A stretch of 42,489 nucleotides of DNA from Cytophagaceae bacterium (GTDB lineage Bacteria; Bacteroidota; Bacteroidia; Bacteroidales; Marinilabiliaceae). The translations under genes and the position numbers were made by a program. The stretch spans positions 1-42,489 of the forward strand of contig JAITVO010000348.1 in the NCBI GenBank assembly GCA_031285765.1, given 5' to 3'. Positions 11,739 to 41,130 of this stretch are shown here, one piece after another. The notes below the pieces were generated by a model. The model saw nothing but the letters and a program-made list of their open reading frames with translations. It searched no databases and was not told the DNA's origin. Position 1 is the first letter of the stretch; each line of letters begins with the position of its first letter.

Positions 11739-13175
11739 ATGTTCAGATTACTAAAAATATCAATCTTATTTGCCCTGTTTCTGTGGTTAACTGGCTGCGA
11801 AAGGGACTATTCGTTTCGCGGTGGCGCTGATGGACTTAATTTTTCGACCGATACTGTAACTTTCGATACCGTTTTTACAACAATTGGCTCGGCAACTTAT
11901 CGGTTAATGGCATACAATCCGTATAATGACGACATGACCATTGATGCCATCCGCTTGGCGGGAGGCGAAAGTTCCAAGTTTCGCATCAATATCAACGGTT
12001 TTCCCGAAACATCGGTCAGGGAAATTCCCGTTATTGCCAACGACAGTTTGCTGATTCTGATAGAAGTAACCATCAATCCAGCCGATAATCACAACTCCTT
12101 TTTTGCCGATGACTCAATTCTGTTTTATACCAAAGAGCGTATTCAATCGGTGCGCTTGGAAGCATACGTGCAAGATGTTGTGGTGCTTCGGAGCCATACG
12201 TTTGCCAACGATACGGTATTGAAAAACGAGAAACCTTATTTGGTTTTCGATTATTTAGTTGTAGATTCCCTAAAAACATTGACGATTGACAAAGGCGTCC
12301 ACATTCATTTTTACGAAGGAGCTTCGATGCAGGTGTTCGGAACGCTGAAAGTGAATGGTACAAAGGATGAACCTGTTTTGTTTGCGGGGCATCGCCTCGA
12401 AAAGTTTTACAACGATAGAGCCGGACAGTGGGGCGGCATTCATCTTCGCCCCGGAAGCCGAGAGCACGCAATTGATTACGCCACAATTAGAAACAGTTAT
12501 TACGGGCTTAATATCGATTCGGTGGGTGTGAAAGACCAAACGCCTGTTGAGCTCCGGAATACGCAGATTAATTATATTACCAAACAGGGGTTGCTTGCGC
12601 AAACTGCTGCCATCAACGTCGAAAACTGCGTATTCGGCTATTGTGGAAGCTCGTCGGTTGCCCTGACGGTTGGCGGCAAGTACAATTTTTACCATTCTAC
12701 GATTGCCAATTACAATATGAATACAGGTGTGGCAAGGGATGGTTTTGATGCGCTGGTGGTATCGAATTATTATCCCGACAAAAATAACGAACCGGTTATC
12801 AGCGATCTCGATTTCTTTTTTTACAACTGCATTATTTCGGGCAACCGGAATGAAAACGACATCAGCATTGATATCAAAAAAACCGAACTGTGCAGCGTAA
12901 ACTGGCGCTTTAGCCATTCGCTTTTAAAAACGTCGGCTACCAATGATTCGCTGACTGGTAAACATTTTGACAATATTAAAATCGAAGAAAGCAAAGACAA
13001 TATTTTTATGGATGACGCCTCTGCCGATTTCAGGCTCGACACATTGTCGGTTGCAAAAGACATCGGTAATTTGAACATTGTTCTTGCCAACGAACGGTTG
13101 CTGAATGACATTGCCGGAAACTCCCGCACCAAAGACAATGCGCCCGACGCAGGGGCATACGAGAGGGGGGAATAA
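11739..13175 (+). CDS. Hypothetical lipoprotein, probably with a parallel beta-helix fold
   Basis: Signal plus lipobox LWLTGC. Repetitive beta-rich sequence. The C-terminal NAPDAGAYE motif is common in beta-helix surface proteins. Confidence 0.7.
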   Translation: MFRLLKISILFALFLWLTGCERDYSFRGGADGLNFSTDTVTFDTVFTTIGSATYRLMAYNPYNDDMTIDAIRLAGGESSKFRININGFPETSVREIPVIANDSLLILIEVTINPADNHNSFFADDSILFYTKERIQSVRLEAYVQDVVVLRSHTFANDTVLKNEKPYLVFDYLVVDSLKTLTIDKGVHIHFYEGASMQVFGTLKVNGTKDEPVLFAGHRLEKFYNDRAGQWGGIHLRPGSREHAIDYATIRNSYYGLNIDSVGVKDQTPVELRNTQINYITKQGLLAQTAAINVENCVFGYCGSSSVALTVGGKYNFYHSTIANYNMNTGVARDGFDALVVSNYYPDKNNEPVISDLDFFFYNCIISGNRNENDISIDIKKTELCSVNWRFSHSLLKTSATNDSLTGKHFDNIKIEESKDNIFMDDASADFRLDTLSVAKDIGNLNIVLANERLLNDIAGNSRTKDNAPDAGAYERGE

Positions 13176-13739: not shown

Positions 13740-15962
13740 ATGAACCATAAAGACATAATACGCCGCCTGCATCTCACGTATCAGTATCTGAACGATAAAC
13801 GGCTGAAAAACGCTCTGGATTTAATTGCCGACGCAGTTAAAGATACGCATCGAAGCGACTTGATTGATACGCATTACAACATTGAGATGACCTATAAAAG
13901 CCTGCTCCGTTTTACGGTAGAAGGCTTTACCGATTCGGGGCGGCAGGAGATTTACAATCAGCTCATCAGCGATATTTTTATATTTGCCGACAATGTGTAC
14001 GACGAGTTGCTGACTCGGTTTGGCGAAGGTTATTTTTACGAACTCATCCGAAAGGTTATTCATTCGGGAGTTTCGTTTGAAACGGTTGCCGACAGTTATT
14101 TTGAACAGCTTACAACTCTGAATCTTTTGGAAGAAAGCGGCTCGGATGTTTCGCCTGTTTATCCTGAAATCAGTTGTACTTCATACACTGTTTTTGAACA
14201 TATTTTAACACAACAAATTATTGGGCAATCAGAAACTGAAACATTGACCCGACTTTTCGGCGCAAACGAAGTTCCATGGACGCAACAGGCGGTGTTTACA
14301 ACAGCCATTACCATACAGTTGCTGCACAGGTTTAATATAAAAGGCATTGATTTTCTTTACAGCCTTGCCGAGCATCATCCCAACATGCAGATAAAACAGA
14401 GGGCGCTGGTTGGATTACTGCTCGCACTGTACAAATACGACAGCCGCCTCCGGTATTACCCCGAAATTGTTGAACGCCTCAAAACCATACGCGAAAACCA
14501 ACCTCTGCTCAACATTGTGAAAACGGTTATCATACAATTTCTTCGAACATACGATACCGAAAATATTGTGCGAAGATTAACCGATGAAATTATTCCCGAA
14601 GTAGCTAAAATTCATCCCAATTTGCGAAACCGTCTGGATTTGGATAATATTTTGGGCGACAATTTTAAGGAAGGTAAAAACCCCGACTGGGAAAAAATTT
14701 TCTCCGACTCGCCCGAATTGATGAGCAAATTGGAAGAGTTTACGAAATTGCAAATGGAAGGCGCCGATACGTTTATGTCAACATTCCGTTTATTAAAAAA
14801 TTTTACCTTTTTTAATAATGTTGCACACTGGTTTCTGCCGTTTTTTTATCCGAATCCTATTGTAGATGATATTTTGAAAAACGAAAATGAAACCTTTCGC
14901 AACCAAACAACGTTGGAGAGACTTGCCGATTCGCCGATAATGTGCAACTCCGATAAATATTCGTTTATTTTGAGTATTCCCAAAATGCCAGCCGGTCAAA
15001 AAGAGATAATGGGACAGATGTTTTTGGCTGAAATCGATGCCATTCGCGATTTAGATGAAAACGACAAGTTGATTGACACCAACATGCAGACGCTGTCGAT
15101 ATCCAACCGGTACATTCAGGATTTGTATCGCTTTTATAAACTCAATCCGCATCGCAACTCGTTTATTGACCCGTTTTCGTGGACATTCGATTTTTATAAC
15201 AAATGGTTTATCAATGAACTGTTTCCCAACGATGACTTGCTCAACCGGTTGGGCGAATATCTTTTCGAAAAGGACAGATATAAAGAAGCCTCTGAAGTGT
15301 TTGAAATTTTGAGCAAACGCACCGATAACAATCTTTCGATGCAGTTGCTTCAAAAACACGCCTATTGTCTGCAACAGCTTCAAAACTGCGAAGAAGCTCT
15401 GCAACTCTACCTAAAAGCCGATTTATATAAACACGGACAGGTGTGGAATCTGAAAAAGATTGCACTTTGCTACCGCTACCTCAAAAATCCCGAAAAGGCA
15501 GTGGAATATTACAAAGAAGCCGAGCGTACACAGCCCGACAATTTGCATACGCAGGTAAGCATAGGGCATTGCCTTCTTGAGATGAAAGACTATGCCGAAG
15601 CATTGAAATACTATTTTAAAGTAGAATATCTCGACCCGAAAAACAAAAAGGTGTGGCGTCCGATTACATGGTGTTCGCTTGCGCTCGGAAAACTCGAACA
15701 GGCTGAAAAATATGCAATGAAAAACATTGATGCCGCCCCTGCTCAAAGCGACTTCCTCAACATGGGGCACATAAAATGGTGCATGGGTAATCGCCTCGAA
15801 GCATTGGAGTGGTATCAAAAATGTGTAAAGTTTGAGGGCAATACAATAACCGATTTTCTTGATTCATTTGAAAACGACCGCCAGCTGCTTCTGGATCACA
15901 ATGTGAACAGCGCCGATATTCCAATAATGATAGACCAGTTAAGATATTATTTGGAGAATTAA
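13740..15962 (+). CDS. Large hypothetical protein with C-terminal TPR repeats
   Basis: 740-aa uninterrupted ORF. The C-terminal ~230 aa show TPR-like periodicity (AxxxYxKA...P). The N-terminal region is not recognised. Confidence 0.75.
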   Translation: MNHKDIIRRLHLTYQYLNDKRLKNALDLIADAVKDTHRSDLIDTHYNIEMTYKSLLRFTVEGFTDSGRQEIYNQLISDIFIFADNVYDELLTRFGEGYFYELIRKVIHSGVSFETVADSYFEQLTTLNLLEESGSDVSPVYPEISCTSYTVFEHILTQQIIGQSETETLTRLFGANEVPWTQQAVFTTAITIQLLHRFNIKGIDFLYSLAEHHPNMQIKQRALVGLLLALYKYDSRLRYYPEIVERLKTIRENQPLLNIVKTVIIQFLRTYDTENIVRRLTDEIIPEVAKIHPNLRNRLDLDNILGDNFKEGKNPDWEKIFSDSPELMSKLEEFTKLQMEGADTFMSTFRLLKNFTFFNNVAHWFLPFFYPNPIVDDILKNENETFRNQTTLERLADSPIMCNSDKYSFILSIPKMPAGQKEIMGQMFLAEIDAIRDLDENDKLIDTNMQTLSISNRYIQDLYRFYKLNPHRNSFIDPFSWTFDFYNKWFINELFPNDDLLNRLGEYLFEKDRYKEASEVFEILSKRTDNNLSMQLLQKHAYCLQQLQNCEEALQLYLKADLYKHGQVWNLKKIALCYRYLKNPEKAVEYYKEAERTQPDNLHTQVSIGHCLLEMKDYAEALKYYFKVEYLDPKNKKVWRPITWCSLALGKLEQAEKYAMKNIDAAPAQSDFLNMGHIKWCMGNRLEALEWYQKCVKFEGNTITDFLDSFENDRQLLLDHNVNSADIPIMIDQLRYYLEN

Positions 15963-16668: not shown

Positions 16669-17781
16669 TTACGATGTCGCGTTATGGAATCGTTCGATTA
16701 AAAACGGCGCTATTTCAGTTAGCCCCATAACCTTTTCTGCGGCGCCAAGCTGAATCGCTTCTTTGGGCATTCCGAAAACTACCGACGATTGCTGGTCTTG
16801 CGCTATGGTAAAGGCTCCCGCTTCTTTCAGTTCAAGTAGTCCTTTAGCGCCATCGGTTCCCATGCCGGTGAGCAGAATGCCTGTTGTATTTTTTCCTGCG
16901 TAACGTGCTGCTGACCTGAAAAGCACATCCACCGCCGGGCGGTGTCTGTTTACAAGTGGTCCGTCTTTCACCTCTACCGAATATTCTTTGCCAACACGCT
17001 TGAGCAGCATGTGTTTGTTGCCGGGTGCTATTAACACTCTGCCCTGATAAAGCCTGTCGCCATCTTCGGCTTCTTTTATTTCCATAGCAGAAGTTTTATT
17101 TAATCCGTCGGCAAACGATTTGGTGAAACCTTCGGGCATGTGCTGAACAATGGCAATGCCGGGCATTCGTGCCGGAAGTTCTCTTAAAAGTGTACGGATG
17201 GCTTCGGTGCCTCCCGTTGAGGCGCCAAGTACAATTATTTTATCTGTATCAATGATGTGCGAACCCAGTGTACCTCTTTCGAGCATTACGTCAGCCGAGA
17301 ATTTGGGACGGACAGTGTATTCAGGCATCATGGGCTTTGTGGTAATGCGTTTCAGTTTTACCTGCGAAGCTGCTTTTACTGCATCACAGAGGATAATTTT
17401 CGATTCGTTGAAAAACTGTGGCGCGTTCATGGCTGGTTTGGCAATAATTTCCGAAGCGCCATACTGCAATGCTTTCATGGCTACTTCGGTGCCCTGTGCT
17501 GTCAGCGATGAAATAACAACTACAGGTATTGGATGCTGCGACATAATTTTCCGAAGAAATGTTAAGCCGTCCATTCGGGGCATTTCAATATCGAGTGTTA
17601 TAACGTCGGGAACCTCAACCTGAATTTTTTTTACGGCGATAAGCGGGTCGGCGGCTGTTCCTATGACCTCAATCTGCGGGTCGCTTTTCAATATCGTGCT
17701 CAGGCTTTGCCTTACAATTGCGGAGTCATCCACAATCAATACCTTTATCTTCTCATTCGTATCCATGTCTTCAGTTCTCAA
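16669..17781 (-). CDS. cheB: Chemotaxis response regulator protein-glutamate methylesterase
   Basis: N-terminal REC domain ([21 protein letters not shown]) plus a methylesterase domain ([24 protein letters not shown]). Confidence 0.93.
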
Positions 17782-17903
17782 ATTATATAATAATTACACG
17801 AAATTTGGCTTACTTCCTGTTTCTAAACCTTGTTGGGTTTGTTGCTTTGTTTGTGTAATTATTATTTGCAATTTATATAAGTATACAGTAATAATTAATT
17901 TTT

Positions 17904-17958
17904 ACGGATTGGCGATTGTTCAAAAAGTGTTTTTGAATGCGGATGACACTGATAGCAC
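17904..17958 (-). repeat. ATCCGCG/GTTCAAAAA-family repeat (inverted orientation) inside the cheD-cheB spacer
   Basis: The reverse complement reads atcagtgtcatccgcattcaaaaacactttttgaac, matching 8337-8377. Contains the hairpin ttcaaaaa/tttttgaa. Confidence 0.5.
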
Positions 17959-18060
17959 ATATTTTTGCAAATTTTATATGGATGATGACTCATATATAAA
18001 TTATACTTCTTTATGTTATTAGTGTGTGCGTCGTCCACCTTCTTTTTGAACAGCCTCGTA

Positions 18061-18534
18061 TTACCGTTCCGATCTGTTTAAAAATTTATGTCGTACTTCT
18101 CCTGTTCTCGAATCAAAAAGAATTTTACGTCCTTTTGTTCCTCCTGTGCTCGATGCTATTATCGGTATTTTGTATTCGGTCAGCATCATTTCAGCTACTC
18201 TTATGTTGCGTTCGCCAATGTGCATACTGCTTTTGTCGGGCGAAAGCAAATCGCCGCCTCCAAATACCTTTGCTGTCAAATTCTCTTTTTTACTGCCCAG
18301 CATCAACATCTTTTCAGTTAGTTTTTCTATTGCGACATTGCCATATTTGGGCGACAGCAAGTCGTTTCCGTTCCAGTTGGGAAGCATGTAATGATTCATA
18401 CCTCCTATTCTCAACACCGGATCGTAAAAACACACCGCTATACACGAGCCCAGAATCGTTTTAATTACATACGGCTCCTTGCTGGCGAATAATGTTGACG
18501 GGTATAAAAAATGTTGTAAAAAATTCTGGTCCAT
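18061..18534 (-). CDS. cheD: Chemoreceptor glutamine deamidase
   Basis: 157 aa with the LGSCIAVC catalytic-Cys motif and CheD-like sequence throughout. Confidence 0.9.
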   Translation of the reverse strand: MDQNFLQHFLYPSTLFASKEPYVIKTILGSCIAVCFYDPVLRIGGMNHYMLPNWNGNDLLSPKYGNVAIEKLTEKMLMLGSKKENLTAKVFGGGDLLSPDKSSMHIGERNIRVAEMMLTEYKIPIIASSTGGTKGRKILFDSRTGEVRHKFLNRSER

Positions 18535-18545
18535 TTTTGAATCCC

Positions 18546-19445
18546 TTAAAAAATCTCGTCATCACCATCAAAAAACAAATCGTTTCCGTCGCCGCTGAAA
18601 CTGTCAACAATGTTTCGTGATTCAGGAATTTTAATGGTAAATGTGGAGCCTTCGCCTTTAGTACTGTCAATTTCAATTGTTCCGTCGAGTACATCAAGCA
18701 GCGATTTGATAATGGAAAGCCCAAGCCCGTGTCCTCTGTTGATTGAATTGATGCCCGAATCCAAGCGTTTGAACCGTTCAAAAATAATCTGCTGATTTTT
18801 TTCAGAAATTCCTGTTCCAAAGTCCTGAACGCAAATAGACAGCACATCTTCGTCGTAGTTTACCTTAATAATAACTTTGCTGTCTTTATAGCTGTACTTC
18901 AAGGCATTGTTAAGGAGATTGCTAAGAATGAGTTTTAACTTTTCGCTGTCGGTTTTAAAATAGAAATTCTTTCCGAAACCGTATTCGATATTAAAGTGAA
19001 ATTCAACTTCTATTCCCATTTTACGCGCCACCAGATTGAACGAGTCGATAATGGACTGAATAAGCGATTTAACACTTACTTTGGCAATGTTTGGCATAAT
19101 TTCACCTGCTTCAATTTTAGCGGCAACAAAAATATTTCTCAACTGAAAGTCGAGATTAAATGCTTCGCTGTGTATCAGGGCTACCATGCTCACTACCTTT
19201 TTCCAGTCGTTTTTCTGTACCGAAAGTATCGATTTTGACAGTCCAAGTATGGATGTAAAGGGGTTTATTATTTCGTTTGAGATGTTCGAAATAAAGTGGC
19301 TTTTCATTGATTCCGACTCCTTAAAGCGCTGCGTTACAATCTGTAACTCACCGGAAAGCATTTTTACTTCGTTCTCTAATTTACTTCTCTCGTCAAGTTT
19401 AATTTTCAGTTCCTTCATCAACTGCTTATCCGAAATGTTTGCCAT
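18546..19445 (-). CDS. Soluble histidine-kinase-like protein (coiled coil + DHp-like + intact HATPase_c) with a degenerate H-box
   Basis: N box LSNLLNNALKYS, G1 VQDFGTGIS, F box IFERF and G2 GHGLGLSI are all present. The H-box reads FISNISNEIINPF, so Asn (AAC at 19275-19277) sits where the phospho-His is expected. No TM or sensor domain. Confidence 0.85.
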   Translation of the reverse strand: MANISDKQLMKELKIKLDERSKLENEVKMLSGELQIVTQRFKESESMKSHFISNISNEIINPFTSILGLSKSILSVQKNDWKKVVSMVALIHSEAFNLDFQLRNIFVAAKIEAGEIMPNIAKVSVKSLIQSIIDSFNLVARKMGIEVEFHFNIEYGFGKNFYFKTDSEKLKLILSNLLNNALKYSYKDSKVIIKVNYDEDVLSICVQDFGTGISEKNQQIIFERFKRLDSGINSINRGHGLGLSIIKSLLDVLDGTIEIDSTKGEGSTFTIKIPESRNIVDSFSGDGNDLFFDGDDEIF

Positions 19446-19458
19446 TTTAATTTGTTTT

Positions 19459-20331
19459 TTAATTGTTTTTTCTGAATATTGTTGGTTTAATATGTTCCAA
19501 TGGTAAGTTCATACCTGATATTGACTCGGAATGTCCGATAAAGAAATAGCCACCCGGTTTCAACTGGGTGCAAATTTGCCGAATAACTTTTTCCTGCGTT
19601 TCCCGGTCGAAATATATCAGCACGTTTCTGCAAAAGATAACATCAAATTCATTGGGAAACGAATAGTTATCCATCAAGTTCAGGTAACTTAACGTCAAAT
19701 TGGCTTGCAAGATACGATTTACTTTTATGGTTTGGTTGGCAGGATCTTTACTTTTCAGAAAATATTTTTTCTTCATTTCAAGCGGAACCCCATCAATTTT
19801 TGACGCAGCATAGATGCCTTTCACAGCAATATCAAGCATTTGCGACGAAATATCGGTTGCCGTAATATCGAACCTGAATGCTGGATTGTTTTTGTGAAAT
19901 TCATTTAAAACAATTGATATGGTATAAGGTTCTTCACCGCTCGAACATCCTGCGCTCCAAATTCTGAAAGTTTCGCCGGGCTTTTGTATTTTTTCGTCCG
20001 GTAAAACTGCATCATTCAAAAAGTTAAAATGAACAGGCTCTCTAAAAAAGTCGGTTTTGTTAGTGGTTACCACATTCAAAAATTGAAGGATCTCTTTGTC
20101 CTGCCCTTCTTTGCTGAAAAGATATTCTTTGTACTCGGTAAAGGAGGTCATTTTAAGTTCCCTTATTCTTTTCAGCAATCGTCCCTGCAACATCACCCGT
20201 TTAATGGGGGGCATCTTTATGCCGAACTGGGCATAAATAAACTTGCTGATATCCGCAAAATCTTTTTCAGAAAGCTGCGCTTTAAAACAATCGAAATCGG
20301 GATTGTTTTGTAATATGCTGTTACTATTCAT
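19459..20331 (-). CDS. cheR: Chemotaxis protein methyltransferase
   Basis: 290 aa with the CheR N-terminal helical domain and SAM-MTase motifs (RIWSAGCSSGEEPYT, FCRNVLIYF). Confidence 0.92.
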   Translation of the reverse strand: MNSNSILQNNPDFDCFKAQLSEKDFADISKFIYAQFGIKMPPIKRVMLQGRLLKRIRELKMTSFTEYKEYLFSKEGQDKEILQFLNVVTTNKTDFFREPVHFNFLNDAVLPDEKIQKPGETFRIWSAGCSSGEEPYTISIVLNEFHKNNPAFRFDITATDISSQMLDIAVKGIYAASKIDGVPLEMKKKYFLKSKDPANQTIKVNRILQANLTLSYLNLMDNYSFPNEFDVIFCRNVLIYFDRETQEKVIRQICTQLKPGGYFFIGHSESISGMNLPLEHIKPTIFRKNN

Positions 20332-20363: not shown

Positions 20364-20897
20364 TCACAATTTTGCTTTCTTTTTCCCGCTCTGTTTTTCT
20401 TCAACACTTTTCTCTACAGGCGCATCTTCTACGGTATTCATCAGGGCAACTACCTCTTTCCTGTTGAAAATTACATCGGCATCCAATATATATATCAAAC
20501 GGCTTTCGTACATGTAGAAAGATGAAATGTACGTGGGTTTGTAATCCTCTACCGTAACGTTTTTCATATCCGAATTCTTTATTTCGAGAACATCAGAAAC
20601 GCTGTCGATGGAAATGCCGAGCTTGTAACTGTTTAGGTTTTGTTCGTCTTCCAGTTCAAGCACAATCACACACGTCGAGGGTGTAACATTTACCGGAGCC
20701 ATGCCAAACTTAACGCCTGTGTCAACTAAGGGAATAATTTCTTCTTGATACTCGGTAACACCCGCCACAAACGGATAGGTTTGCGGAATCGGTTTAGGAG
20801 GAGTGTATTCCCTTATTTCCCTTACCTTTGAAACATTAATTCCAAAGTTTTCTTCTCCTATTTTAAATACGAGATACGAATTTAATGTAGTATCCAT
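20364..20897 (-). CDS. cheW: CheW-like coupling protein with a Lys/Glu-rich C-terminal tail
   Basis: Single CheW domain (FKIGEENFGINVSKVREI ...). Confidence 0.88.
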   Translation of the reverse strand: MDTTLNSYLVFKIGEENFGINVSKVREIREYTPPKPIPQTYPFVAGVTEYQEEIIPLVDTGVKFGMAPVNVTPSTCVIVLELEDEQNLNSYKLGISIDSVSDVLEIKNSDMKNVTVEDYKPTYISSFYMYESRLIYILDADVIFNRKEVVALMNTVEDAPVEKSVEEKQSGKKKAKL

Positions 20898-20908
20898 ATA
20901 CTTAGCTG

Positions 20909-21361
20909 TTAGTTGTCAATAATTTGAGAAAGATGTTTTAAGTCGATGATATGAATAAAGGTATTCTTGTGAAGAATGGTTCCTTCATACGAATCAATCA
21001 TTCCCTTTTTGCTGTCCAATACAGTTTCTTTTAAGTCTTCGGGTTTAATTTCAATAACTTCGCTTATCATATCAACATAAATTCCGAATCTTATTTCCTG
21101 CGAATCGGAGGGATTGATAATAATAATTGAATGATTCTTTTCTTTTTCGCCGATTTCTTCTTCCATAATCAGGCGCATATCAACCACAGGAACAATGTTG
21201 CCGTGATGATTGATAACGCCAATCATATAGTCGGGTGTATTGGGCACTTTGGTAATAACATCGGGTACTTCGAGGATGTGTAGCACCTGCAAAGCGTCAA
21301 CCGCAAAAATGTTATCTTTCACAATGAACGATAATATCGTGTTTATTTGATTTGTTTCCAT
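20909..21361 (-). CDS. cheW: CheW-like coupling protein
   Basis: 150 aa, single CheW domain. Confidence 0.88.
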   Translation of the reverse strand: METNQINTILSFIVKDNIFAVDALQVLHILEVPDVITKVPNTPDYMIGVINHHGNIVPVVDMRLIMEEEIGEKEKNHSIIIINPSDSQEIRFGIYVDMISEVIEIKPEDLKETVLDSKKGMIDSYEGTILHKNTFIHIIDLKHLSQIIDN

Positions 21362-21373
21362 ATTCTTGCATTT

Positions 21374-23434
21374 TTAAACAACTGGATTTTTTATCATTTC
21401 ACGCGCAGTTTCTTTTTTAAAGCGGCGAGCATTTAATAGGCGCGACGTGTCAATAACCATCGAAATGGTTCCGTCGCCCATAATCGAAGCGCCCGAAACG
21501 TATCCCTGTTTTTCGAGGAATCTGCCGAGCGGTTTCACTACCGTTTGATATTCGCCTACAACCGAATCGGCTATGATGCCCAACTTTTTATCGTCGGTTC
21601 GTATCAAAATCATTTGCGAATACTCTTCGTCGGTTCTTTCGGCTTCTTTGAAAATGTCTCTTAAATCAATATATGGAATTTGCTCATTATTAATGGTTAC
21701 CACATAGTTGAACGAGGTGTCTTTCCTACCTTTCTCTGCCGAGAATATTGTTTCGATTGACGAAATTGGCAATACATAATGATTTGCTGCCACTTTTATT
21801 AGCAATCCGTCGATAATAGAGAGCGTAAACGGCAGGCGGATGGACATAATAGTTCCTTTTCCTTTTTCGGAGTCAATAGAAACATCACCTCTGATACCTG
21901 CTATTTTACGACGCACTACATCCATTCCAACTCCGCGTCCCGAAATATCGGAAACGGTTTCGCGAGTCGAAAAGCCGCTTGTAAAAAGAAGTTCAAAAAT
22001 CTCTTCTTTTGCGAGTTGAGTGTTCGGTTTAATAAATCCTTTTTTTACGGCTTTATTCATTATAATGTCAGGGTCGATTCCTCGTCCATCGTCTGATACT
22101 TCAATAATAACATTAGCGCCCGAATTATAGGCTTTAAAGAGTATTGTTCCTTTGGGTGACTTGCCGGCTGCAATCCGTTCTTCTTTTGATTCAATACCAT
22201 GATCAATACAGTTCCGCAGGATATGAAGCAACGGGTCGGTCAGGTTTTCGATAATGGTTTTGTCCAATTCAATATCGCTTCCTTCAATGATGAAGTCAAT
22301 GTCTTTGTTTTGTTCTTTCGACAAATCGCGCACCAATCGTTGGAAGCGCATCAATTCGCTTTGAAGTGGAATAAGGCTGATGTCAAAAGCATTATCTCTT
22401 AACTGCCGCGACAGTTTCTGTATATTTTCCGCAATAGCGGCAATTGTTGTATCGTTGTTGTTCTCGGCAAAAAGCGAAAGTTGCGATTGTGTAATCACTA
22501 ATTCACTCACAAGTGTAACCAGTTCATCAACTTTGTGCGACGATACTCTGATACTTGATATTTTATGTTCCTTTGCCACCGCCGCTTTCTTTTTCTCTGC
22601 AGCTTCTTCAGGTGTTTCTACGCAATTTTTCACTTCGTTCAGCGTAAGCAGCGTGTTGGTAGTCGAAGCCTTATCAAGCAGTTCTTTCAGTTTTGGGCTG
22701 TTGATAATTGATGCGTCAGCCACCTGATCAATATGCAGTTCGCACTCGCCATCCACAAATATGAAAACTTCCTTAATCTCGTTAATCGACTGTGCTGTAC
22801 TCAAAATAATTTGCCAAAATGTATAACAAGTGTCGGGTTTCAAATTGTCGATATCAGGAATTTTCGACGTAAACGCAACAGTTACGGCTTTTCCCAGCGC
22901 ATGAACATCGTCGAGTAATAAAAACGGATTTGTTCCATTATCCAACAGTTCAGCCTGTGGAATAAAAGTTATCAAATAACTTTTTTCACCTTCTGGATTG
23001 ACCAACTCTTCATTTTTCGTTTGGATGTTTGTTTTCTTTTCGGAGGCGTTTCCTTTGAGAAATGACTCGAATCCGGCAATAGCTGAGTTAAAATCCGACA
23101 ATTCGTTTTTCGACAAATTATCGCCAAACTTCAACAAGTGCATTATCCTGTCAATAGCCGAAAATGTCAGTGTTATCAATTCACTGTTTACATTGATTTT
23201 TTTATTTCTGACATTGTCATAAATAGTTTCGAGGTGGTGTGTAAACTCACTGAGGCGGTTGAATCCGAACATAGCTCCCCCACCTTTTATAGAATGCATT
23301 GCCCGAAAAATCCGTTCAATAAGTTCCTGATTTTCCATATCGTTCTCCAGAAGCAGCAGCGCTTCTTCGAGGTCGCGTATGTTATCCATAGACTCTTCGA
23401 CAAATTTTGCCTTAAATTGATCTATTTTGTCCAT
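21374..23434 (-). CDS. cheA: Chemotaxis histidine kinase CheA (P1 Hpt, linker/P2-like, P3, P4, P5; no C-terminal REC)
   Basis: Hpt motif AMHSIKGG, P3 IRVSSHKVDELV, P4 HILRNCIDHGIE / DDGRGID / GRGVGMDVV, and a P5 CheW-like end. Confidence 0.95.
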   Translation of the reverse strand: MDKIDQFKAKFVEESMDNIRDLEEALLLLENDMENQELIERIFRAMHSIKGGGAMFGFNRLSEFTHHLETIYDNVRNKKINVNSELITLTFSAIDRIMHLLKFGDNLSKNELSDFNSAIAGFESFLKGNASEKKTNIQTKNEELVNPEGEKSYLITFIPQAELLDNGTNPFLLLDDVHALGKAVTVAFTSKIPDIDNLKPDTCYTFWQIILSTAQSINEIKEVFIFVDGECELHIDQVADASIINSPKLKELLDKASTTNTLLTLNEVKNCVETPEEAAEKKKAAVAKEHKISSIRVSSHKVDELVTLVSELVITQSQLSLFAENNNDTTIAAIAENIQKLSRQLRDNAFDISLIPLQSELMRFQRLVRDLSKEQNKDIDFIIEGSDIELDKTIIENLTDPLLHILRNCIDHGIESKEERIAAGKSPKGTILFKAYNSGANVIIEVSDDGRGIDPDIIMNKAVKKGFIKPNTQLAKEEIFELLFTSGFSTRETVSDISGRGVGMDVVRRKIAGIRGDVSIDSEKGKGTIMSIRLPFTLSIIDGLLIKVAANHYVLPISSIETIFSAEKGRKDTSFNYVVTINNEQIPYIDLRDIFKEAERTDEEYSQMILIRTDDKKLGIIADSVVGEYQTVVKPLGRFLEKQGYVSGASIMGDGTISMVIDTSRLLNARRFKKETAREMIKNPVV

Positions 23435-23563: not shown

Positions 23564-23929
23564 TTATCGAATAACTCTTGAAATAGCTGAAAGAAGTTTG
23601 GCTGGAACAAATGGCTTTATAATCCATCCCGTAGCGCCCGCTTCTTTGGCTTCCATTTTCTTTTCTGCCTGCGACTCTGTAGTTAAAAATAAAATTGGCG
23701 TATGTTTGTACTGTTCCATTTCGCGAATTTTTCTAATCAACCCCAATCCATCAAGGTTAGGCATGTGTAAATCGGTAATTACGATGTCGATATGGCGACC
23801 GTCGAGAAATTTCAACGCATCTTCACCATCAATACCAACAAGAACCTCGTATCCTTCGTTTTGAAGCGTAAAACTCACTACTTCGCGGATACTTTCAGAA
23901 TCGTCAACGATTAATACTGTTTTTGCCAT
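23564..23929 (-). CDS. cheY: CheY-like single-domain response regulator
   Basis: 121 aa with DD (VDDSE), phospho-Asp (ITDLHMP), T (LFLTTES) and K (IIKPF) all conserved. Confidence 0.92.
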   Translation of the reverse strand: MAKTVLIVDDSESIREVVSFTLQNEGYEVLVGIDGEDALKFLDGRHIDIVITDLHMPNLDGLGLIRKIREMEQYKHTPILFLTTESQAEKKMEAKEAGATGWIIKPFVPAKLLSAISRVIR

Positions 23930-23952: not shown

Positions 23953-24267
23953 TTAATTGTTTTTGCAAATTATACCGGAAAAACCGGCATTGGTTAATAA
24001 CGATTTTAAATCGTCGGGGACCGAAATCGAAATACTGACATCGAATCCTTCCTTTTGACCGCTTAATTTTAAAGCATAAAGCAACTGAACAAAAGTTACA
24101 TCAATATTCTCAACATTTTCAGTTGAAATGTCGATGCTTTTATGCTTTTTGCGATTTGCATTCAACTCTTCGGTAATTTTCTCAATATTACTGATGGTTA
24201 ATTGCCCACCAAAGACAACGTTCAAGTTACCTTTTTTATTGCTGTATTTTACACTGTAGTTTCTCAT
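23953..24267 (-). CDS. STAS-domain protein (anti-sigma-factor-antagonist-like)
   Basis: 104 aa with a SpoIIAA/RsbV-like layout (L.G.L....I.....L...........ID...V..ID.....L). First gene of the chemosensory operon. Confidence 0.7.
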   Translation of the reverse strand: MRNYSVKYSNKKGNLNVVFGGQLTISNIEKITEELNANRKKHKSIDISTENVENIDVTFVQLLYALKLSGQKEGFDVSISISVPDDLKSLLTNAGFSGIICKNN

Positions 24268-24415
24268 CTTGTAAATAAAATATTTGTTTTAAACTCAATA
24301 CTGTACATGTTTTTAAATCTTTATATCTGCGTAAACAGACTAAAAATCAATGAAAAACACTATTTCACTAACAATTTACCGACCTTTATACTTTGATTAC
24401 CCTAAAAGGGTTTCA

Positions 24416-24443
24416 ATATTTATCGAATGATTTCGATAAATAT
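24416..24443. promoter_or_regulatory. Perfect 12-4-12 palindrome (atatttatcgaa tgat ttcgataaatat); candidate operator upstream of the che operon
   Basis: The arms are exact reverse complements. Centred ~163 bp upstream of the STAS ATG (24267), within the 472-bp intergenic region. Confidence 0.4.
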
Positions 24444-24691
24444 ATCATATTATTTCCGCATACACATATTTATAGCTGATATTATGCACTTTACAAACTA
24501 AAAAAATCATGATTCTGCTGTTTGGGCTAGATTATTTTGTGAGAGTGGAATTATTTTAGTTTATAATCGATTCATTGTTTCCTAATATTTTTCATTCCAT
24601 TTGTCGGGCAACTGTGTAATAGCGCACTTTCGATTTCCAGAAGCAATTTCTGAAAAAGAATTTGTTGCCGCAACATCCTCATGTATGCAAA

Positions 24692-24730
24692 TAAAAAATC
24701 AAAGCCTCACATTGTTCATGCAAGGCTTTG
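24692..24730 (-). terminator. Rho-independent terminator after tRNA-Lys
   Basis: 8-bp stem caaagcct/aggctttg with a 15-nt loop, followed on the minus strand by ATTTTTTAT. Confidence 0.55.
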
Positions 24731-24739
24731 GCTTTCAAG

Positions 24740-24812
24740 TGACCCCGGAGAGGCTCGAACTCTCGACCCATTGATTAAGAGTCAATTGCTCTACCAACTG
24801 AGCTACGGAGTC
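24740..24812 (-). tRNA. tRNA-Lys (anticodon CUU)
   Basis: I folded a full 73-nt cloverleaf by hand: acceptor GACTCCG/CGGGGTC, D arm GCTC-AGTTGGTA-GAGC, anticodon arm ATTGA-CTCTTAA-TCAAT, T arm GAGAG-TTCGAGC-CTCTC, discriminator A. CCA is not encoded. Confidence 0.93.
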
Positions 24813-24913
24813 ATTTTTTTGTTTTTGGCGGTGCAAAGGTAGAGAAAAAATTGAAAAAACAATACTGAACTTATATTTTTTCTGTTTGTAGATGATTATT
24901 TTTTTACGAACAG

Positions 24914-25465
24914 CTAAAACAACTCATTATTGATAATCGTTTCTATTTTCCGAACAGCATGAAAATAAGAGGCTTTTAATGCGCCTACCGAAGTGTTGAG
25001 AATTTTAGACATTTCCTCGTATTTCATATTATCAAAATATTTCATGTTAAAAACGAGACGTTGCTTATCGGGCAACGTAAGAATACTTTTTTGAAGTCGT
25101 TTTTGAATTTCGTTGCCTGCAAACAGCGGGTCGTTGTTCACTTTTTGCGTCATAACAGATTCAAGGTCTTCGAACGAATTTATCAACTCTGCCTTTTTTT
25201 TATTCAAATGACTCAGCGCTTCGTTTGTGGCAATGCGGTAAAACCAAGTAAAAAAAGACGCTTCACCTCTGAAATTAGGCAAACTGTTCCACGCTTTTAT
25301 AAATGTATTTTGCAGTAAATCGTCGGCATCTTCGTGTACCACAACCATTTTGCGCAAATGCCAATAGAGCCGCTGCTGATATTTTTTAACAAGCAGCGAG
25401 AACGCTTCTTCGCGCTTACGCGGATTTTGAAGCATTTCGAGTATCAATTTGTCGTCGGGATACAT
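24914..25465 (-). CDS. ECF-type RNA polymerase sigma-70 factor
   Basis: 183 aa with region 2 (DADDLLQNTFIKAW...WFYRIATNEALSHL) and region 4 (RLVFNMKYFDNMKYEEMSKILNTSVGALKASYFHA). Confidence 0.9.
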   Translation of the reverse strand: MYPDDKLILEMLQNPRKREEAFSLLVKKYQQRLYWHLRKMVVVHEDADDLLQNTFIKAWNSLPNFRGEASFFTWFYRIATNEALSHLNKKKAELINSFEDLESVMTQKVNNDPLFAGNEIQKRLQKSILTLPDKQRLVFNMKYFDNMKYEEMSKILNTSVGALKASYFHAVRKIETIINNELF

Positions 25466-28074: not shown

Positions 28075-28707
28075 TTAACAATGCCAAACAAGTGTATAGT
28101 CCGAATCGGTAATATAATTCAACTGATAGTGTGTGGCGCGTACTCCCAGCTCTTCGGTATTCAATATTCCTTCGTGGCAAAGAGCAAAGGGCGAAACTTT
28201 GAGGTCGGCATTAAAAACAGCATCCTGTCGGCGTATCATTTTATAGAGAACTTCTTTGGCGCACCAAATCAGTGTATCGTATTCCAGCTCCTTATCGGGA
28301 GGGATAAAAAGTTTTTCGTCGGGGTGAAGAAACCTTTCGGCAATGCGTAGAATACGCTGCTGTGGTATTTCGATGTCGATGCCTGCAATGTCATTTTGGG
28401 AGATAGCAATGGCTGCAAAACCTTTAGTATGCGTAATACTGATACTTTTATTGAGCTGCGCAACAAATGGCTGCCCGTTTTCGTTGTAAATAACGTGAGG
28501 AATGTGTTGAGTAAGTTTGTAAATCAGCGCTCGCGAAGCCATCCACTCCAGTCGTCGCGGCGCATAACGAAACGACTGCACGTTTAGCAGCATTTGTTTT
28601 GTGCAAGGGAACATTTGCAAGAGCTGCTCTTCGGTTTCATCTATTTTCCAAACAGCAGCAACGCCGCCTGAATCTGTTTTTCTTGAAAATATAACAGGCA
28701 TTACCAA
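28075..28707 (-). CDS. 4'-phosphopantetheinyl transferase (Sfp type)
   Basis: Motifs GIDIE and WCAKEVLYK. Its start overlaps the gldD stop. Confidence 0.8.
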   Translation of the reverse strand: MVMPVIFSRKTDSGGVAAVWKIDETEEQLLQMFPCTKQMLLNVQSFRYAPRRLEWMASRALIYKLTQHIPHVIYNENGQPFVAQLNKSISITHTKGFAAIAISQNDIAGIDIEIPQQRILRIAERFLHPDEKLFIPPDKELEYDTLIWCAKEVLYKMIRRQDAVFNADLKVSPFALCHEGILNTEELGVRATHYQLNYITDSDYTLVWHC

Positions 28708-29291
28708 TTATTTTTCCATCGAATGCTTTCGACCATGCGAAAAATATCGTCGGAGATGAAATGAACCACCGGAGCAAGCGAATCTTTGTTGGGAGCTGTA
28801 TTAAAATAGAGAGCGCCACGCAAAAAATGCCTTACGCTGTCGGTAACAAAAAATTGAAAGGAGGAAGCTGCATTTCCTTTTATTTCGAAAACTGTTCCAT
28901 AAACGTTTTGATTGTCATTAATAAAGGGATATTCCTTTATACCATCAGCTTTAATGGTATGCGCGTATGCAAAACGGATGTTATCCTCAATAATTTCATA
29001 AATATTATTGTTCACTTCTATATAAGTGATATGTATTTTTGCATTAAACTGCGGGAATGTAATATTAATCCAGTTAGGTTCGGCTGTGGGCGATACATCG
29101 GTTTCTACGCGGGCATACTTTGGATAAATAAAACTGTAAGGCATTGCCGAATCAAGCTGTATGTAACCTTTTTCGGGCATTTCGATACGAAAATAGCCTC
29201 TCGGTTTGGGTGTTCCTGCTTGCCGGCACGAAACCGAGAGCAACATTATTGTGCAAAACACGATTGATAGCCGTAATAAATATTGATACAT
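28701..29291 (-). CDS. gldD: Gliding motility lipoprotein GldD
   Basis: Lipobox LSVSC followed by PKPRGYFRIEMPEKGY. The C-terminal FFVTDSVRHFLRGALYFNTAPNKDSLAPV...ESIRW matches my recollection of the GldD family. Confidence 0.75.
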   Translation of the reverse strand: MYQYLLRLSIVFCTIMLLSVSCRQAGTPKPRGYFRIEMPEKGYIQLDSAMPYSFIYPKYARVETDVSPTAEPNWINITFPQFNAKIHITYIEVNNNIYEIIEDNIRFAYAHTIKADGIKEYPFINDNQNVYGTVFEIKGNAASSFQFFVTDSVRHFLRGALYFNTAPNKDSLAPVVHFISDDIFRMVESIRWKNNW

Positions 29292-30196: not shown

Positions 30197-31240
30197 ATGA
30201 ACAATACAATCTGTTTTCCTGCCGAATGGACAGAGCAGGATGCTGTGCTAATGGCGTTGCCGCACAAGGCTACCGACTGGGCTGATATGCTCGGCGAAGT
30301 GCAAAACTGTTTTTGGGAAATCATCAATGCCATAACAAAACATGACGAGCCGGTTATACTGCTTGTTCCCGACCGCCAAAACTTTGATGAGGCTAAACAT
30401 CGCTTCAGCGAAAAGGTATGTCCCGTCATTGTTCCAACCAACGATACTTGGGCGAGGGATTTCTGTCCTGTTTTTATTTACAAGGATGGCGTACCCGTTT
30501 GCCTCGATTTTAAATTCAACGGCTGGGGACTGAAATTCGCTGCCGATAAGGATAATCTGATTTCGGGAACGTTAGCGTGCCGCAATATATTTTCGGAAAA
30601 ATCGGGATACCGTAATCTTTTGAATTTTGTACTCGAAGGCGGAAGTCTTGAATCCGACGGCGAAGGAACATTACTCACCACCGCCCAGTGTTTGCTTTCG
30701 CCCAACCGAAACGGCGAATGGAACCGTCCTCAAATTGAAACGTATTTAAAAGAACATTTGGGACTTTCGCGCATTCTATGGCTTAACAGCGGATTTTTGG
30801 AAGGCGACGATACCGACAGCCACATCGACACGCTGGCGCGTTTCTGCGACACAGAAACCATTACTTATGTTAAATGCAGCTCCCCTAACGATATTCACTT
30901 CGAGGCGCTGGCAAATATGGAAGACGAGCTGAAAAAATTTTGCACCCCCGCCGGAAAACCATACCGACTGCTGCCGCTTCCAATGGCTGAACCTGTATTT
31001 TTCGATGGCGAAAGACTTCCCGCCACTTATGCCAATTTTTTGATTGTAAACAAAGCCGTACTTGTGCCCACTTACAATTCACCGCTCGACGATGAGGCTA
31101 TAAAAATTATCTCATCCGCTTTTCCCGACCGCAAAGTTGTTGGCGTCAACTGCAATGCGCTTATCAAACAGCATGGCTCGCTGCATTGCGTTACAATGCA
31201 GCTGCCCAAAGGAAGTATCAATCCCAATTTTTTAGCATAA
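30197..31240 (+). CDS. aguA: Agmatine deiminase
   Basis: 347 aa, PAD_porph family, with TWARDF, DSHIDTLARF and catalytic-Cys GSLHCVTMQ. Confidence 0.9.
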   Translation: MNNTICFPAEWTEQDAVLMALPHKATDWADMLGEVQNCFWEIINAITKHDEPVILLVPDRQNFDEAKHRFSEKVCPVIVPTNDTWARDFCPVFIYKDGVPVCLDFKFNGWGLKFAADKDNLISGTLACRNIFSEKSGYRNLLNFVLEGGSLESDGEGTLLTTAQCLLSPNRNGEWNRPQIETYLKEHLGLSRILWLNSGFLEGDDTDSHIDTLARFCDTETITYVKCSSPNDIHFEALANMEDELKKFCTPAGKPYRLLPLPMAEPVFFDGERLPATYANFLIVNKAVLVPTYNSPLDDEAIKIISSAFPDRKVVGVNCNALIKQHGSLHCVTMQLPKGSINPNFLA

Positions 31241-40895: not shown

Positions 40896-40896
40896 G

Positions 40897-41130
40897 CATA
40901 ATGTATTAAGTTTGTTGCGCAAAACAGCCCTGAAAGGGCTTCATCTTCATAACCGCACCGGCAAATGTAGGGGCGGGGTTTGCCCGCCCAGCGTTGCCTG
41001 CGGAAAATGACGCTCGTATCTCCCTGCCCGCAAGGGCAGAACAGATGTGAAAGTACAGGTTTTGAAGATTCAGCCTTTTCAAGGCTATCAAAAGTAATAC
41101 TGCGTAACATAATGTATTAAGTTTGTTGCG
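40897..41130. repeat. 23-bp perfect direct repeat (cataatgtattaagtttgttgcg) flanking a 188-bp segment with four short GC-rich hairpins
   Basis: Copies at 40897-40919 and 41108-41130. Internal hairpins are agccct/agggct, gggcggg/cccgccc, ctgccc/gggcag and agcctt/aaggct. Confidence 0.8.

Follow-up and report, generated by a model that had tools for sequence, protein, structure and literature searches.

The stretch of DNA analysed here comprises 42,489 nucleotides, positions 1 to 42,489 of contig JAITVO010000348.1 of a Cytophagaceae bacterium, and is referred to below as the window. It carries a chemotaxis-like operon on the minus strand, in the order STAS-domain protein, CheY-like response regulator, CheA, CheW, CheW, CheR, HKL, CheD and CheB, a setting that had been named in a preliminary description of this DNA and was confirmed by Pfam. 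HKL is the name used here for a histidine-kinase-like protein without the phospho-acceptor histidine, encoded by the open reading frame (ORF) at 18546..19445 (-). The asparagine that replaces the histidine is fixed throughout the family, the gene is nearly always followed by cheD, and HKL is probably a new signalling component and not a broken gene.

The HKL protein and its missing histidine

HKL is 299 amino acids long and has the fold of a histidine kinase, with a DHp (dimerization and histidine phosphotransfer) and a CA (catalytic and ATP-binding) domain. Residues 1-43 (19317..19445, -) form a sensor-less N-terminal coiled-coil helix to which no Pfam domain could be assigned, and residues 44-115 (19101..19316, -) form the HisKA-like DHp helical hairpin, as delineated from the HisKA profile, the AlphaFold (AF2) helices and the alignment with HK853. 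The CA domain spans residues 121-276 (18618..19085, -), and is followed by a disordered acidic tail at residues 280-299 (18549..18608, -; pLDDT ~40). The N (NLLNNALKY), G1 (DFGTG), F (FERF) and G2 (GHGLGL) boxes are all present and the ATP-binding domain is kept, as had been described; the helix of about 45 residues in front and the lack of transmembrane, PAS and GAF domains likewise agree with the Pfam results and the AlphaFold model, in which none of these domains was found.

Pfam HATPase_c matched residues 166-276 with an E-value of 1.8e-25 (~90 bits). The HisKA model was matched over its entire length (1-66 of 66, residues 47-114) at 18.5 bits, which is under the 26.9-bit cut-off; HK853, used as a control, scored 74.4 bits. 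HATPase_c_2 also matched HKL above its cut-off (31.5 against 27.4 bits), a model on which HK853 cross-matches at 21.9 bits and which is far exceeded by HATPase_c (90 bits). No NCBIfam model reached its cut-off, the best being PnpS with 170 of 400 bits, and no Pfam match to CheC or CheX was found at E-values up to 0.01, the fold being DHp plus CA.

The H-box of HKL reads KSHFISNISNEIINPFTSILG, in which the minus-strand codon 19277-19275 (19275..19277, -) is AAC and encodes Asn57. The phmmer alignment to HK853 in the PDB (2c2a/3dge) covers HKL residues 39-278 with an E-value of 2e-27 and pairs 'MKSHFISNISNEIINPFTSI' of HKL with 'MKTEFIANISHELRTPLTAI' of HK853, so that Asn57 falls on the acceptor His260 and His50 on Glu253. 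The register of the H-box is that of HK853, residue for residue, and the absence of the acceptor histidine reported in the preliminary description is hence confirmed. Asn57 is followed by E-I-I-N-P at residues 58-62 (19260..19274, -), with Glu58 at His+1, Asn61 at His+4 and Pro62 at His+5, positions with assigned roles in HisKA kinases (PMC3510030).

An AlphaFold model of HKL, built from 60 family members, has a mean pLDDT of 82.6. Residues 6-75 form a single long helix, residues 81-113 a second one that turns back, and the CA domain is alpha/beta; the ATP lid (226-238) and the tail (280-299) are predicted to be disordered. In a Foldseek search, HK853 was matched with an E-value of 1.7e-21 and a TM-score of 0.86, and the best structural matches were HK853, chiefly in its complex with RR468, and the pseudo-kinase DivL (4q20). 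The model superposes on HK853 of the HK853-RR468 complex with TM-scores of 0.86-0.89 and a root mean square deviation of 2.2-2.8 Å, as against 6.3 Å for free HK853; this would lend weak support to the phosphatase reading discussed below.

Conservation of the family and linkage to cheD

Three sets of homologues were pooled: the 120 closest, 147 aligned representatives and 117 sequences from a second seeded search. Position 57 in the 375 pooled homologues, which are 36-86% identical to HKL and span Bacteroidota, Desulfuromonadota and Nitrospirota, is occupied by Asn in 374, by Ser in one and by His in none. Asn is present without exception in the 120 closest homologues (73-86% identity), which belong to Marinilabiliaceae genera such as Geofilum, Alkalitalea, Natronoflexus, Alkaliflexus, Carboxylicivirga, Marinilabilia, Thermophagus and Breznakibacter. 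Among 1.8 billion cluster representatives, an exhaustive HMMER search identified 1,391 proteins with E < 1e-30; the best 150 of these were taken and the 147 under 400 amino acids were aligned. These representatives are mostly ~290-305 amino acids long and 36-51% identical to HKL, and retain Asn57 in 144 of 145, Glu58 in 137, Asn61 in 144 and Pro62 in 145 (of 145-147). The second search, seeded with a 36%-identical member, recovered relatives in Geobacter, Oryzomonas, Desulfuromonas, Geopsychrobacteraceae and Nitrospirae, every one of which (117/117) contains N-E-x-x-N-P, and judged from these alignments this motif is the hallmark of the HKL family. A few close homologues (P0045, P0048, P0055 and P0057) carry a precomputed Pfam match to PF27720.1.

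The codon for His, CAC, is only one transversion from AAC, and the preliminary description had considered that an ordinary histidine kinase might have been hit by a strain-specific lesion or misread in sequencing, with an ortholog alignment proposed as the check. The His to Asn change is not a lesion, because hundreds of independent assemblies agree on it, with Asn in 374 of the 375 homologues and His in none, and because the protein is under strong purifying selection; the probability of an error is negligible and a pseudogene is ruled out on the same grounds. The substitutions around the acceptor position had also been read as long-term divergence. This stands insofar as Asn57 is ancient and selected, but Asn61 at His+4 is no sign of decay, because T or N is normal there, as the HEIKNP of NtrB and CrdS shows, and phosphatase activity depends on this residue (PMC3510030).

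The ATP site is similarly conserved among the aligned representatives: N180 in 147/147, N176 in 146/147, G210 in 146, R224 in 143, F225 in 146 and G238, G240 and G242 in ~145. Two positions vary, the N-box Lys183 (K in 63 and E in 56, Glu thus occurring in 38% of representatives) and the G1 Asp208 (D in 130 and N in 15, Asn in 10%), both of which are kept in the HKL of the window. Across related loci, mean identity to the window proteins is 90% for the CheY-like regulator, 74% for HKL, 73% for CheB, 67% for CheD, 62% for CheR, 56% for CheA and 36% for the STAS protein, which places HKL second only to the CheY-like regulator among the operon proteins.

The cheD gene (18061..18534, -) lies 11 nt downstream of HKL and was identified by Pfam CheD (7e-28); NCBIfam CheD models match it at an E-value of 5e-42, yet under their cut-offs. 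A genome scan for HKL loci covered the 80 closest of 552 matches, the taxonomic breadth of the family being taken from the second protein search. Twelve distinct neighbourhoods with precomputed gene annotation, at 36-84% identity to HKL, were compared, and cheD is directly downstream of HKL in 11 of them, a PAS kinase occupying this place in the single exception. The distance from the HKL stop to the cheD start is 9-12 nt in most loci. No CheC, CheX or CheZ family was recorded in any of these 12 neighbourhoods.

The surroundings of the pair vary widely. Besides the operon type of the window, we found CheR-CheB-HKL-CheD with CheW and MCP (methyl-accepting chemotaxis protein) absent; a distant locus with response regulator-HKL-CheD, in which the receiver gene overlaps the HKL start; MCP-CheW-HKL-CheD-CheR-CheB; HKL-CheD-SiaC; and, on a Nitrospirae contig, response regulator-MCP-response regulator-STAS-CheA-HKL-CheD with CheR and CheB absent. 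In Geobacter sp. FeAm09 and a Desulfuromonas metagenome-assembled genome, both Desulfuromonadota, HKL and CheD stand alone amid unrelated genes. The near-constant adjacency to cheD, which was absent from the preliminary description, is the strongest new clue to the role of HKL. The two-gene islands of these genomes (L091:10001-11415, L093:10001-11463 and L094) have no further che gene within 5-10 kb, and in Geobacter an uncharacterized 112-aa gene comes next, with genes for an HDOD-HD and a GGDEF protein after it.

Both ends of the protein also carry conserved sequence. The tails have a mean net charge of -5.9 over their last 20 residues and a consensus of the form G-N-x-phi-phi-F-D ... phi-F-COOH, where phi is a hydrophobic residue; phi-phi-F occurs within the last 25 residues of 334/364 members and the final residue is hydrophobic in 329/364. 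The core G-N-x-phi-phi-F-D is conserved, with a hydrophobic C-terminus after it in most members. The Geobacter proteins keep the core and end in ...SEK, and therefore the core, not the terminal Phe, is the universal part of the tail. As CheD is the sole protein that co-occurs in nearly all contexts, the tail partner would by elimination be CheD, HKL itself or a housekeeping protein.

The acidic tail had been compared, tentatively, with the C-terminal pentapeptides that tether CheR and CheB to receptors. Being acidic, disordered and ended by Phe-COOH, it does resemble a chemoreceptor pentapeptide of the NWETF type, but such pentapeptides follow xZxxZ, the second and the fifth of the last five residues being aromatic (Z = F/W/Y; PMC7390727). 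In the DDEIF of the window the second residue is Asp, the pattern is matched by only 3 of 261 HKL tails, and the MCPs in the operons of relatives end in a true xZxxZ pentapeptide, NYEKF; the comparison is thus not upheld. The MCP tails of relatives (...EFDLDNYEKF, e.g. L001:3216-4910) and the tail of HKL (...FFDGDDEIF) share F-D-x-D-x-x-E-x-F, and judging by this pattern the two may compete for a common partner.

At the other end, residues 1-14 (19404-19445 of the window) have the consensus M-x-x-L-S-D-x-E-L-x-x-E-L, in which L9 is conserved in at least 90%. The motif phi-S-D-x-x-L, scored as phi-[STND]-[DENQ]-x-x-phi in the first 14 residues, is found in 278/364 members. It is loosely like the CheY-binding N-terminal peptide of FliM and FliY (LSQxEIDALL). 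The critical Asp and Leu of FliM are out of line in this comparison, and we regard the apparent likeness as a weak lead.

The histidine-kinase fold and the idea of a kinase without its histidine are already known. What appears to be new is a family in which His to Asn is fixed, the breadth of this family and the obligate pairing of its members with cheD. In the literature searched, which provided general context only, neither a paper nor a curated family describing HKL was found; papers on Geobacter (PMC2577667) and Campylobacterota (PMC9239204) mention genes in che clusters that are unassigned or labelled 'histidine kinase' but do not analyse them.

Candidate functions of HKL

The reading that we favour, with a probability of roughly 0.45, is that HKL is a kinase-dead HisKA protein acting together with CheD as a phosphatase on a phosphorylated receiver, in the manner of CheC. 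Autophosphorylation at the canonical site would be impossible with the acceptor His permanently replaced by Asn. The DHp domain keeps Asn61 at His+4, the Pro next to it and the helix on which a receiver docks. We propose that HKL would bind a phosphorylated receiver of the pathway, that of CheB or the CheY-like regulator itself, and speed up its dephosphorylation, with the nucleotide bound by the CA domain serving as a cofactor. HKL and CheD together would form a functional analogue of CheC-CheD at loci where CheC, CheX and CheZ genes are not nearby, and the acidic phi-phi-F tail would serve as a peptide for docking, with CheD as the leading candidate partner.

This reading is favoured because of published work on the His+4 position of HisKA kinases, on NtrB H139N and on the E-x-x-N motif of CheX and CheC. 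For CrdS, HK853 and two other HisKA kinases it has been shown that T or N at His+4 serves the phosphatase activity exclusively, and that Pro substitutions strongly cut this activity (PMC3510030); HKL has both residues (N61 in 144/145, P62 in 145/145). As phosphatases, CrdS and EnvZ do not depend on the acceptor His (PMC3510030). NtrB and CrdS share the H-box HEIKNP (PMC3510030), and the H139N change in NtrB gives NEIKNP, which conforms to the HKL hallmark and has been used as a phosphatase-only enzyme (10.1101/122606). E-x-x-N is the catalytic motif of CheX and CheC (PMC3510030), and E58-I-I-N61 of HKL fits this helix motif, a resemblance at the level of the motif only. Further points in favour are the family-wide Asn at the acceptor position, cheD as the next gene in 11 of 12 neighbourhoods, the absence of CheC, CheX and CheZ from all of these, the second rank of HKL in conservation within the operon, and the receiver gene that overlaps the HKL start at one distant locus.

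In comparison with kinases of the NtrB/CrdS type (LAHEIKNPL), HKL has the same fold, H-box register, boxes and residues at +1 (Glu), +4 (Asn) and +5 (Pro), and the experimental mutant NtrB H139N, which behaves as a phosphatase-only enzyme, has its hallmark sequence. HKL differs in that its His to Asn change is natural and fixed family-wide, in having no sensor domain, in its HisKA score below the cut-off, in its acidic phi-phi-F tail and in a gene tied to cheD and not to a DNA-binding regulator. With the CheC of the Bacillus and Thermotoga CheC-CheD systems it has in common an auxiliary gene beside cheD within chemosensory operons and E-x-x-N on a helix, and it occurs at loci with no CheC, CheX or CheZ gene close by; unlike CheC, CheX and FliY, it has an unrelated fold and an ATP-binding domain, and would be a putative phosphatase and CheD partner. 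In Bacillus, CheY~P is reported to strengthen the binding of CheC to CheD (PMC3513319). The proposed phosphatase mechanism is plausible.

Several observations weigh against this reading. In CrdS it is the kinase activity, not the phosphatase activity, that depends on the Glu at His+1 (PMC3510030), so that a pure phosphatase role leaves the conservation of Glu58 unexplained. Loss of the acceptor is moreover not always tolerated, since the phosphatase activity of PleC needs the His (PMC3510030). The stand-alone HKL-cheD loci have no receiver gene nearby. The conservation of the ATP site seems stronger than a cofactor site needs, and the pseudo-kinases DivL and RetS have degenerate ATP sites. As Glu58 and the ATP site are left unexplained, two rivals, a kinase with a switched substrate and a DivL-like sensor, have to be weighed.

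The former, which we consider unlikely, holds that HKL is an active protein kinase that phosphorylates a protein docked on its DHp domain, for instance Thr58 of the STAS protein, CheD or a histidine phosphotransfer (Hpt) His, be it that of CheA P1 or of the stand-alone Hpt of relatives. There are precedents in the serine kinases of PDK/BCK type and in the split kinase CheA4, which acts on CheA3. It would account for the N, G1, F and G2 boxes kept family-wide and for E58, the general base of HisKA phosphoryl transfer (PMC3510030), and the above-cut-off match to HATPase_c_2, a model of anti-sigma serine kinases, may point the same way. The STAS gene opens the operon, F7 stage-1 chemosensory clusters have been linked to STAS and serine-phosphatase genes (PMC7184735), and many related loci have an extra stand-alone Hpt gene, although the window operon has none. 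The preliminary description had suggested that HKL is a Ser/Thr kinase for this STAS protein, an idea that has lost ground. In a profile alignment with RsbV, TM1442 and SpoIIAA, a hydrophobic residue (V, L, I or M) of the STAS protein falls on the phospho-serine of these proteins, with only the next residue conserved as T/S58, so that canonical STAS phosphorylation is rejected. The STAS protein is moreover the fastest-evolving protein of the operon (36% mean identity against 74% for HKL), and HKL-cheD loci exist without it. In enzymes of the SpoIIAB/GyrB type, the catalytic Glu precedes the Mg-binding Asn by four residues (E-x-x-x-N); HKL differs from SpoIIAB/RsbW in having N176 in this place, an Asn as in histidine kinases in 146/147 representatives, besides the partner without a canonical phospho-serine. 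The N-box Lys that binds phosphate and the G1 Asp are also the two CA positions at which the family is variable.

The DivL-like alternative, which we hold to be about as improbable as the substrate-switched kinase, regards HKL as a non-catalytic pseudo-kinase whose DHp domain binds a phosphorylated regulator and signals how much of it there is to a partner, be it CheD, CheA or the receptor array; HKL would then serve as a scaffold or feedback sensor that leaves the phospho-aspartate unhydrolysed. Caulobacter DivL and RetS are like HKL in combining a histidine-kinase fold with a replaced acceptor His, and DivL (4q20) is among its best matches in sequence as well as structure. DivL is reported to be a His-less kinase repurposed as a sensor of a phospho-regulator, its DHp domain binding the phosphorylated form of a single-domain regulator (PMC4211667). 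The constant linkage to cheD would fit the model for Bacillus, in which CheY~P acts through CheC on the availability of CheD (PMC3513319), and the invariance of Asn57 suggests a specific contact, beyond the mere absence of His. Against this, the output of DivL runs through PAS domains, which HKL lacks, and a passive binder has no need of the conserved ATP site or of the phosphatase residue N61. DivL further differs in having Tyr where HKL has Asn, and HKL in its conserved ATP motifs, its Che pathway and its pairing with CheD. The distinction from the favoured phosphatase is not a sharp one, as the two overlap and CheC itself is both a binder and a weak phosphatase. Equally doubtful is a broader possibility, in which HKL and CheD would form an autonomous module, with or without a Che pathway and with a chemistry unlike those known for either family: CheD, which is a glutamine deamidase, would modify or be gated by HKL, or the ATP-binding domain of HKL would phosphorylate a non-His residue of CheD or of another client, docked at the place of the former His, with Glu58 as the general base. 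In both versions, the module would be a new, ATP-dependent branch of chemosensory adaptation in place of CheC.

Two further proposals of the preliminary description fared worse. A kinase using His50 as a shifted acceptor had some appeal, as this residue lies seven positions before Asn57, two helical turns above the canonical site and on the same helix face, and is His in 120/120 close relatives. His50 is not a general acceptor, since the position is variable across the wider family (H 70, N 32, Q 17, D 7, Y 5, G 4 and others), N57 is invariant and HK853 has Glu253 there; the candidate is rejected and its chances are extremely slim. Scarcely better placed is HKL as a stand-in for a receptor, namely a four-helix-bundle substrate of CheR, CheB and CheD tethered through its tail. 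The HKL gene does lie among cheR, cheD and cheB, no MCP gene was found in the 42-kb window, and the acidic, Phe-ended tail recalls those of MCPs. Most relatives, however, encode an MCP with NYEKF in the same operon, the window and two other loci alone being without one, and in Nitrospirota and Desulfuromonadota the HKL-cheD pair occurs without cheR or cheB. Inspection by eye of the family consensus over the DHp helices and N-terminal coil found no methylation or deamidation consensus, that is, no [EQ][EQ] pair in an [ASTG][ASTG]-x-x-[EQ][EQ]-x-x-[ASTG][ASTG] context. The receptor substitute is rejected together with its pentapeptide tether.

CheD, which deamidates receptors, is present in many chemosensory systems without CheC, such as the F7-type clusters of Vibrio, Pseudomonas and Geobacter. 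A conserved partner gene of CheD across phyla would extend the known set of Che proteins, and HKL would be a candidate for the part of signal terminator or feedback element where no flagella are involved, for example in gliding Bacteroidota. In view of the experimental His to Asn change in NtrB, the family would be a natural kinase-off version of a two-component kinase, and the separation of kinase and phosphatase would become testable in a native protein. Geobacter, with its genetic tools and with HKL members in related strains, is a practical test bed.

The operon and its surroundings in the window

The operon opens with the STAS-domain protein (23953..24267, -), whose Pfam match (6e-5) is just over the cut-off, followed by the single-domain CheY-like regulator (23564..23929, -; Response_reg 1.4e-28), the most conserved protein of the operon, and by cheA (21374..23434, -) with Hpt, H-kinase_dim, HATPase_c and CheW-like domains in Pfam. 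The two cheW genes occupy 20364..21361 (-), at 20909-21361 and 20364-20897 (Pfam CheW 3.7e-24 and 1.8e-28), and cheR lies at 19459..20331 (-; Pfam CheR 1.2e-61 plus CheR_N). Downstream of HKL and cheD, cheB (16669..17781, -) combines a receiver with a methylesterase (Pfam CheB_methylest 6e-66 plus Response_reg).

This gene order is that of the F7 stage-1 cluster, described as STAS, cheY, cheA, two cheW, (receptor), cheR, cheD and cheB (PMC7184735), a comparison made on gene order. In the published cluster, no kinase-like gene separates cheR from cheD (PMC7184735). The HKL operons also differ from it in the position of the receptor, which is upstream of STAS in most Bacteroidota relatives and absent in the window. 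The usual order in most of the ~80 related loci is DUF4154, MCP, STAS, response regulator, (Hpt), CheA, CheW, CheW, CheR, HKL, CheD, CheB, and the receptor-less form of the window is shared with only two of them (L005 and L053). Where most relatives have a DUF4154 (YfiR-like) gene and a HAMP-MCP gene (for comparison, L001:2350-4910 of Alkaliflexus), the window has ~650 nt at 24268-24913 without an ORF of at least 60 amino acids. A strong terminator-like hairpin (24730-24700, -) lies upstream of the STAS gene, past the gene for a sigma factor of the ECF (extracytoplasmic function) type at 24914-25465.

The gap between cheD and cheB (17782-18060) is 279 nt long and AT-rich, with weak promoter-like matches, compared with ~70 nt at the same junction in Alkaliflexus (L001); it could be an internal promoter or the remnant of an insertion. 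In many relatives, cheB is followed by a second block (L001:12588-20900; also L003 and L004) with a PAS/GAF protein, two CheR-like genes, a receiver-less CheB methylesterase, an uncharacterized gene, a PAS-GAF-SpoIIE protein (PP2C phosphatase), DUF6272 and SiaC. This block has the look of a SiaABC-like partner switch with additional methylation enzymes attached. A tetratricopeptide repeat (TPR) protein (13740-15962, +) is found at this site in the window instead.

Beyond that, 11739-13175 encodes a 478-aa protein with a lipoprotein-like N-terminus and no Pfam match at E-values up to 0.001. The window also encodes the gliding lipoprotein GldD (28701-29291), a CHU_C protein of type IX secretion (38595-40922) and a Porphyromonas-type peptidyl-arginine deiminase (30197-31240). 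These genes point to a gliding, non-flagellate member of the Bacteroidota, and the flagellar motor can therefore not be the output of the Che-like pathway.

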